Program-made: the position numbers and the translations under genes
Notes under the pieces: model-generated
What the model saw: only the letters and a program-made list of their open reading frames with translations
Databases searched by the model: none
What the model was told of the DNA's origin: nothing
From: a virus
UHGV virus genome: UHGV-0057186
Reading direction: 5' to 3' (one strand)
Length of the DNA: 64,000 nt
Shown: in pieces, positions 42,825 to 43,479 of the stretch
Layout: every line of letters begins with the position of its first letter
How positions within the stretch are numbered: position 1 is the stretch's first letter

Positions 42825-43058
42825 TTATTTTTTACGAAAAATTGATTTATTTTCTGCTGCCCATTTTTCAATAACTGCAGCAGGACCAGTAACAACAATT
42901 TTATCACCGTAATCTTCTGCGGCGAGTTGACCGAAATTATCTAATGCATCACGAAGAACTCCATGAGGCATTTCACCCATTTTATCTTTCTTGCCGGTGT
43001 AAATAAACTCAACTTTTGCATCAGAAGATTCAGCGATAAATTCTTTGAAAGTTTTCAT
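42825..43058 (-). CDS. Internal (capsid-targeted) protein, 77 aa
   Basis: From ATG 43058: MKTFKEFIAES... capsid-targeting sequence. Confidence 0.55.
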   Translation of the reverse strand: MKTFKEFIAESSDAKVEFIYTGKKDKMGEMPHGVLRDALDNFGQLAAEDYGDKIVVTGPAAVIEKWAAENKSIFRKK

Positions 43059-43095
43059 TTTAGTTTCCATTCGATTGTTTTGTTTTGATAGGGTA

Positions 43096-43124
43096 ATAGT
43101 ATCACAACTAAAACCCTATGTAAA
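43096..43124 (-). promoter_or_regulatory. T4-type early promoter
   Basis: Minus strand GTTTACATAGGGTTTTAGTTGTGATACTATTACCCTATCAAAAC. Confidence 0.6.
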
Positions 43125-43149
43125 CAACTTTGTGAAATTATTTTAAATC
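43118..43149. repeat. 32-bp perfect direct repeat, copy 1 (gene 3' end + promoter -35 region)
   Basis: atgtaaacaactttgtgaaattattttaaatc identical to 43448..43479. Confidence 0.85.
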
Positions 43150-43395
43150 TTCTAATCGTTTCTTCATCTTAGAACCATTTTTAGCAATTTCTCCTGCATC
43201 GGAGCATAATGCTAAAAGTGCTTTAACTTTAGTTTGGTCTCCTTTAAAAGATGAAGGATCGACTGCAGCAGCAAGTTCTTTAATACGAGAGAAAAGACGC
43301 TCAGCTTCAGCTAAAGCCATTCCAAGCTTTACTTCCATACCGTGAGAAGATTCAGTGATAGTAGTTTTTGTAGCAAACTCTTTGAAAGTTTTCAT
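43138..43395 (-). CDS. Internal (capsid-targeted) protein, 85 aa
   Basis: MKTFKEFATKTTITESS...; central region clearly similar to 33789..34070 product. Confidence 0.55.
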   Translation of the reverse strand: MKTFKEFATKTTITESSHGMEVKLGMALAEAERLFSRIKELAAAVDPSSFKGDQTKVKALLALCSDAGEIAKNGSKMKKRLEDLK

Positions 43396-43425
43396 TTTAT
43401 TTTCCTAATTAATTTTGATGAGATA

Positions 43426-43454
43426 ATAGTATCACTATCTCATCAGCATGTAAA
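43426..43454 (-). promoter_or_regulatory. T4-type early promoter
   Basis: Minus strand GTTTACATGCTGATGAGATAGTGATACTATTATCTCATC. Confidence 0.6.
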
Positions 43455-43479
43455 CAACTTTGTGAAATTATTTTAAATC
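43448..43479. repeat. 32-bp perfect direct repeat, copy 2
   Basis: Identical to 43118..43149; covers 3' end of 57B and -35 region of the next promoter. Confidence 0.85.

Follow-up and report, generated by a model that had tools for sequence, protein, structure and literature searches.

The internal-protein genes ip5 and ip6 of the phage studied here are most probably self-contained early cassettes that are exchanged, within a known T-even locus, through short promoter-module repeats by the phage's own homologous recombination. We give this reading a probability of about 0.88. According to it, each cassette would combine a T4-type early promoter (GTTTACA-17-TACTAT), whose -10 element is enclosed by an AT-rich hairpin, with a Shine-Dalgarno sequence, a conserved leader and a variable gene body. 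The promoter modules and the leader would supply perfect homology of 20-32 bp on either side of the variable body, i.e., ip5 lies between copies of a 32-bp repeat from the -35 side, and ip6 between copies of a 20-bp repeat from the -10/hairpin side. Via these repeats, recombination would swap, insert or delete whole cassettes and spare the flanking genes, either in a mixed infection or between repeats within one genome.

The locus and its genes

All analyses refer to one 64-kb stretch of viral DNA (64,000 nt), called the window in the following. It stems from a Tequatrovirus and is 99.9% identical to Escherichia phage HEMP5 over 2.1 kb around the locus. This 2.1-kb block matches 657 phage records, nearly all of them Tequatrovirus, and at least 80% of it is covered at one place in 209 of the 657 (GenBank). 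The window phage is a T2-like Tequatrovirus. Its 57B (acb1)-trna.4 interval is the hyperplastic locus of T-even phages that goes by the name 'ipI', and the known genes ip5 and ip6 reside in it.

Every gene between 41.3 and 45.5 kb lies on the minus strand. In transcription order, gene 1 (dNMP kinase, 44165-44890) comes first, followed by 57A (43923-44165) and 57B (43468-43923). The latter encodes a 151-aa protein that is identified as the anti-CBASS nuclease Acb1 by its Pfam match (PF23474, E 2.6e-60) and by synteny with T4 57B; RefSeq records, T4's included, label it 'RNA ligase' despite the Acb1 match. 57B is conserved and anchors the variable locus on its left side. The conserved right anchor is a trna.4-like small membrane ORF of 61 aa (42581-42766, phrog_1692, synteny with T4 trna.4), downstream of which three more ORFs and then a ten-gene tRNA cluster are found. 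The overall gene order is that of T4 57B-ipI-trna.4. The tRNA cluster itself (Arg, Asn, Tyr, Met, Thr, Ser, Pro, Gly, Leu, Gln) covers 40332-41281 on the minus strand, and the mechanically derived ORFs at 40890-41351 that overlap it are artefacts.

A preliminary description of this DNA had placed two small ORFs with capsid-targeting leaders directly downstream of 57B, and both are present on the minus strand. The gene ip5 (43138-43395) encodes an internal head protein of 85 aa (phrog_3499, E 1e-49), which is 92-99% identical to the source-named Ip5 proteins of T2 and RB70 (UniRef Q38378); the gene is also annotated as ip5 in phage PP01, and its body is present in 252 phage records. The gene ip6 (42825-43058) encodes an internal virion protein of 77 aa when read from MKTFKEF (phrog_8111, E 1.5e-50), with the mechanical ORF beginning four codons earlier at 43070. 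Its homologues carry the names Ip6 or internal (core) protein, and its body is found in 229 phage records.

Both leaders are capsid targeting sequences of the MKT(Y/F)xEF type and end in (I/L)-x-E, the pattern recognized by the T4 prohead protease gp21. Reading this pattern from the sequence, cleavage of the Ip5 leader MKTFKEFATKTTITE is predicted between ITE and the following SSHG, such that a mature protein of about 70 aa with pI 9.2 would remain. For Ip6, the leader MKTFKEFIAE would be removed between IAE and SSDAK, which predicts a mature protein of about 67 aa with pI 6.5.

A further leader-bearing gene belongs to a second IP locus. The 85-aa product had been called a clear paralogue of the protein encoded at 33789-34070 (minus strand, 93 aa), and we find the two to be 48% identical over 84 aa (E 1e-24) with both assigned to phrog_3499. 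The ATG of this paralogue overlaps the stop codon of the lysozyme gene e. The gene is without a promoter of its own and adjoins e and denV. The second locus (32832-34555, minus strand) contains e, the Ip5 paralogue, denV and a 157-aa leader-bearing protein (Pfam DUF7412); the order in T4 differs (e-ipIII-ipII-denV).

Repeats that bracket the genes

The 32-bp perfect direct repeat ATGTAAACAACTTTGTGAAATTATTTTAAATC, denoted R, occurs exactly twice in the 64-kb window, namely at 43118-43149 and 43448-43479 as had been reported. No further copy was found in the window when allowing for up to 3 mismatches, where 0 are expected (100 shuffles). On the coding strand, R reads GAT TTA AAA TAA tttcacaaagtt GTTTAC at, i.e., it comprises the codons for DLK plus a stop codon, an 11-nt spacer and the -35 element. 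The earlier statement that it spans the last codons of the upstream gene and the -35 region is thus accurate. Copy 1 (43448-43479, minus strand) joins the DLK-stop end of 57B via the spacer to the GTTTAC -35 element of the ip5 promoter, and its sequence is also found in T4 and in two of the related loci studied below (L026, L034). Copy 2 (43118-43149, minus strand) joins the DLK-stop end of ip5 to the -35 element of the ip6 promoter.

The shared ending can be traced a little further. DLK-stop terminates both 57B (43468-43479) and Ip5 (43138-43149), and a divergent Ip5 of a relative (L015, at about 4870-4881) ends in the same way with a different Asp codon. The C-terminal end of the Ip5 paralogue at the e locus differs from DLK. 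That 57B and Ip5 share the DLK-stop may be coincidental, or it may mark a fossil recombination joint.

A second perfect direct repeat, R2, had been missed in the preliminary description. It is 20 nt long (TGATAGGGTAATAGTATCAC) and brackets the 77-aa gene. Copy 1 (43086-43105, minus strand) covers the -10 block and the 3' hairpin arm of the ip6 promoter and forms the left joint of a 301-bp ip6 insertion relative to T4. Copy 2 (42785-42804, minus strand) lies inside the trna.4 promoter and forms the right joint of that insertion.

Comparison with related phages

To compare the locus across T-even phages, we used 36 IMG/VR loci fetched through 57B plus T4. A first clustering of the ip proteins was confounded by their common leader and was therefore redone with 12 residues trimmed. 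In these 36 loci and T4, the number of leader-bearing genes in the 57B-trna.4 interval ranges from 0 to 5; the genes represent more than 15 families and are arranged in many different ways. Two divergent relatives show in addition a tRNA-Met inside the interval and a tRNA-Arg directly after trna.4 (L032, 5176-5252 and 6053-6129; L036, 5686-5762 and 5999-6075), and these tRNAs accompany non-IP ORFs.

L034 shows an indel. Along its upstream flank, 3.9 kb are 98.3% identical to the window. Relative to the window, L034 lacks a segment of 330 bp, and this clean indel consists of exactly one repeat R plus the ip5 cassette. Judged from the sequences, this is the product expected from a recombination between two copies of R, or from its reverse.

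T4 shows a replacement. It carries ipI in the slot of ip5, i.e., between the full repeat and a 21-nt core of it (ATTTCACAAAGTTGTTTACAT). From 57B through the repeat and the promoter to the 5' UTR and the opening codons, window and T4 share one identical sequence. From there on, the ip5 body stands against the ipI body, until homology resumes exactly at the 21-nt repeat core. Further downstream, the window differs from T4 by the 301-bp insertion that carries ip6 and is bounded by the R2 copies. In T4, the promoter module that precedes ip6 in the window drives trna.4.

Other relatives show further combinations. In L033, a different ip gene is found behind a promoter of the ip5 type, and the promoter of L026 is chimeric with a 5' half of the ip6 type and a 3' half of the ip5 type. 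Furthermore, ip5 and ip6 each occur without the other. The end points of indels and replacements in the relatives fall inside the repeats. Taken together, the variable ip gene content and the position of the joints, as seen in L034, T4, L033, L026 and the whole set of 36 loci, support the earlier proposal of cassette shuffling through promoter-region repeats.

Promoters and embedded hairpins

A consensus scan identifies an early promoter before each of the two genes, both of the form TTTACA-17-TACTAT with TG extension on the minus strand (43454 to 43426 for ip5 and 43124 to 43096 for ip6). Including the preceding G, the promoters occupy 43426-43455 and 43096-43125, respectively. To call them near-identical was slightly generous: both exist as claimed, but the 71-nt promoter cassettes are 82% identical, with identical -35 side and -10 block gtgatactatta and a diverged spacer and stem. 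MZ726795 lists the site equivalent to the ip5 promoter as a T4 early promoter, and the T4 ipI promoter is nearly identical to the ip5 promoter. A third, weaker cassette, which had been overlooked, is located upstream of trna.4 (42786-42824, minus strand) as a 61% copy with its -10 element TACTAT at 42795-42800. The -35 element of this trna.4 promoter (42819-42824, minus strand) reads ATTTAC in the window, where L003 and L034 as close relatives have GTTTAC; from its sequence, this change may weaken the promoter in the window phage. No perfect late promoter (TATAAATA) is found within the locus, from which we infer that protein would be supplied at head assembly by read-through or by early synthesis.

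Every promoter of the locus embeds a hairpin, with the -10 hexamer located in its loop or adjacent to it, a feature absent from the preliminary description. The ip5-promoter hairpin (43416-43445, minus strand) is formed by the arms 43416-43425 and 43436-43445 (TGATGAGATA / TATCTCATCA), which are 100% complementary and hold the -10 hexamer in loop and upper stem. It folds with dG -15.4 kcal/mol and z -3.1 within the intergenic region (z -6.4 for the promoter segment), and a compensatory change from A-T to G-C is observed in L003 and T4. For ip6, the arms ATAGGGT (43088-43094) and ACCCTAT (43113-43119) yield dG -18.1 kcal/mol and z -4.2 for the intergenic region as well as dG -13.2 and z -4.4 for the promoter segment. 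The hairpin of the trna.4 cassette (arms 42786-42797 and 42802-42813) reaches dG -16.1 kcal/mol and z -3.9 in the intergenic context and z -5.5 for the promoter segment.

We also assessed the hairpins across the comparative set. Since the register of the stems against the -10 element varies by up to 3 nt, they cannot be described by one consensus structure, and we replaced a column-wise covariation count by per-sequence folding against shuffled sequences. For the 63 unique long intergenic cassettes from the 37 loci, the mean folding z is -3.6 and 81% are below -2. The structure is kept although the stem sequences are unrelated. In the trna.4 cassettes of many relatives (L019, L021, L022, L024, L026, L028, L029 and others), an outer stem additionally pairs the spacer with the trna.4 Shine-Dalgarno sequence (e.g., ttccttg / caaggag), such that a read-through RNA would mask the ribosome site and a promoter-initiated RNA would not.

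Within the window, 21 GTTTAC/ATTTAC promoter-like sites are matched on both strands. Hairpins are found at 5 of the 15 sites on the minus strand, among them all three sites of the locus, so they are special to these cassettes and not general to early promoters. Strong -10 hairpins occur at two early promoters outside the IP loci (-35 at 21958 and 37579, both minus strand; z -5.2 and -5.7), and these may point to additional cassettes that are prone to shuffling. Outside the ip5-ip6 locus, no hairpin is seen at the remaining GTTTAC promoter-like sites of the window.

Concerning the role of the hairpins, MZ726795 annotates the same structures as terminators (WebGeSTer). Our scan yields neither a U-tract at the hairpins nor an intrinsic terminator, and given the missing U-tract the hairpins are at most candidate terminators. 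Furthermore, a transcript started at the promoter lacks the 5' arm, which restricts hairpin formation to DNA and read-through RNA.

Alternative explanations of the repeats

The hairpins themselves, and not the flanking repeats, might be the active elements, i.e., a structure- or sequence-specific protein would target recombination to them in an integron-like site-specific system. Their conserved position in spite of completely different stem sequences would fit this idea, as would the marking of only a subset of the early promoters and the L026 chimera, whose crossover lies inside the hairpin and -10 block. The possibility has also been raised for the PeSLs (promoter-early stem-loops) of RB49, where mini-circle crossovers were mapped to the loop (Arbiol 2010, PMC2839356). 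On the other hand, the locus encodes no recombinase, functions at the RNA level are equally possible for the hairpin, and all joints observed here lie in perfect homology of at least 20 nt, which ordinary T4 recombination can use (PMC2839356, PMC9391042). We thus consider active hairpins improbable. The same doubtful standing applies to the broader speculation that the hairpins are structure-specific recombination sites of IP loci that resemble integrons without a dedicated integrase, with DLK-stop as a fossil capture joint, and, as a separate matter, that Ip5 and Ip6 inhibit defences not yet tied to internal proteins.

Without any recombination, the 32-bp identity could also result if purifying selection maintains a strong early promoter, with its UP element and -35, for binding of the same polymerase. 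Indeed, GTTTAC and an AT-rich upstream region are common to T4 early promoters, and the published consensus, as the annotation of MZ726795 quotes it, includes the -10 block gtgaTActat. Yet the identity includes the 11-nt spacer and, beyond it, 12 nt that are coding sequence and stop codon, and the 12 other minus-strand GTTTAC/ATTTAC sites of the window do not show this sequence even when 3 mismatches are allowed. In addition, the end points of the indel in L034 and of the replacement in T4 are placed exactly within the repeat. Promoter selection is therefore quite unlikely as the explanation of the identity, and recombination between promoter modules is the reading we keep.

The preliminary description had left open whether duplication or shuffling produced the locus. 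Of these, only shuffling stands. A tandem duplication of one internal-protein gene followed by divergence would agree with the tandem layout, the similar leaders and the 82% identical promoter cassettes. Beyond the leader of 12 to 17 residues, though, Ip5 and Ip6 do not align. Their AF2 models differ as well: Ip5 is modelled as all-helical with three helices (pLDDT 80), and Ip6 adopts a small fold of the alpha/beta type (pLDDT 79). Both proteins belong to different PHROGs, each gene is found alone in relatives, and the true paralogue of ip5 is the gene at 33789-34070, 9 kb away. Since Ip5 and Ip6 are unrelated past the leader, we reject a duplication of gene bodies as very unlikely; only the regulatory modules are repeated.

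Finally, an assembly or sequencing artefact can be dismissed as having a negligible chance, because both copies of the repeat occur in three independently sequenced genomes (L001, MZ726795; L002, NC_031011; L003, an IMG/VR UViG), the 2.1-kb block is a single aligned piece in 209 records, and nothing was found in favour of such an error.

Putative function of Ip5 and Ip6

The leader is the only part common to Ip5, Ip6 and the T4 proteins IpI, IpII and IpIII. When the mature Ip5 and Ip6 were compared to T4 Ip1, Ip2 and Ip3 (BLASTP), matches were confined to the leader. Neither protein gave a hit below E 0.01 against PDB sequence profiles, and Pfam holds no family for either. Structure-based searches did not extend this picture: the sole match of the Ip5 fold in the BFVD viral library is its own orthologue, and the best Foldseek match of Ip6 in the PDB has an uninformative E of 0.13. 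Our literature search found no functional study and no virion or injection data for Ip5 or Ip6. Given that the mature proteins lack detectable similarity to Ip1-3 or to structures of known function, an anti-restriction role can be suggested for them only by analogy with T4 Ip1-3.

Established T4 biology (PMC3012670, PMC12373910) outlines what the proteins would do. Guided by the leader, Ip5 and Ip6 would enter the prohead, where the gp21 protease would trim them, and they would be injected along with the DNA. Following the analogy with T4 Ip1-3, they might then disable a first-line host defence, e.g., a restriction enzyme of the GmrSD type. In T4, a different GmrSD is inhibited by each of Ip1, Ip2 and Ip3 (PMC12373910), and diverse IPs with a capsid targeting sequence have been described as defence proteins (PMC3012670).

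Because the upstream neighbour 57B is Acb1, an anti-CBASS nuclease, the region with its adjacent ip genes looks like an anti-defence island. T4 Ip1-3 neutralise specific restriction enzymes, and internal proteins are injected ahead of gene expression. As the internal proteins that have been tested act in this specific way, the content of the locus helps to set the host range, which bears on phage therapy cocktails that are built from Tequatroviruses.

Comparison with known systems

Polymorphic IP loci of T-even phages were reportedly described, and the names Ip5 and Ip6 introduced, by Repoila, Tetart, Bouet and Krisch in 1994 (EMBO J 13:4181). The window shares with these loci the 57B-trna.4 position, the Ip5/Ip6 names, the conserved leader, the conserved regulatory blocks up- and downstream of each ORF and the variation in number and identity of ip genes between phages. 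There is no difference of substance, i.e., the window represents one more ip5-ip6 isolate. The observation of cassette shuffling is thus real and was rightly read, and it is already known: it has been described since 1994 and matches Repoila 1994, Arbiol 2010 and Comeau 2014. Since earlier publications and over 200 annotated genomes already contain mechanism and genes, the window adds no new principle.

Sequences resembling PeSLs were seen by Repoila et al. (1994) at two IP loci and considered as possible drivers of plasticity (stated in PMC2839356). PeSL cassettes agree with the locus studied here in combining a composite early promoter with a stem-loop, in flanking non-essential genes of hyperplastic regions and in serving as recombination joints (PMC2839356, PMC4122927). 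According to Arbiol et al. (2010, PMC2839356), the T-even IP elements are analogues and not homologues of the RB49 PeSLs. Their promoters follow the T4 early consensus, and their stems are weaker and rich in AT. The promoters of ip5 and ip6 both fit the T4/PST-type consensus TTTACW-N17-TAYWAT given by Comeau et al. (2014, PMC4122927), who also list five IP differences between PST and T4. The sigma-70 promoters of TTGACA type and the GGGG...CCCC stems that define homology to the PeSLs of RB49 and phi1 are absent from the locus. Given their GTTTAC -35 and AT-rich stems, which are those of Arbiol's analogue class, we file the elements of the locus as PeSL-like and not as PeSL. Two further differences to PeSLs are the -10 element, which is placed inside rather than beside the hairpin, and the absence of a U-tract. 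Terminator activity and mini-circles have been shown for the PeSLs of RB49 and phi1, not for T-even IP elements.

Regarding the T4 proteins IPI, IPII and IPIII, the capsid-targeting leader with its (I/L)-x-E site, the small size, the distribution over two loci and the promoter modules are the same. Ip5 and T4 IPI have closely similar leaders (MKTFKEFATKTTITE and MKTFKEFTSTTTPVSTITE, respectively, the latter followed by A after the terminal ITE), whereas the mature sequences of IPI-III are unrelated to those of Ip5 and Ip6.

Gene cassettes of integrons are likewise small, promoter-adjacent, interchangeable adaptive genes that reside at a fixed locus with short repeats of hairpin potential. In contrast to them, the phage locus has neither an integrase nor attC/attI sites, and every cassette carries its own promoter. 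Here, general homologous recombination is the simplest explanation of the exchange, and T4 is known to recombine readily via short homologies (PMC9391042). Set against what has been described for these systems, the new genomes spell out the exact 32-bp and 20-bp joints as well as the indels of 330 bp against L034 and of 301 bp against T4.
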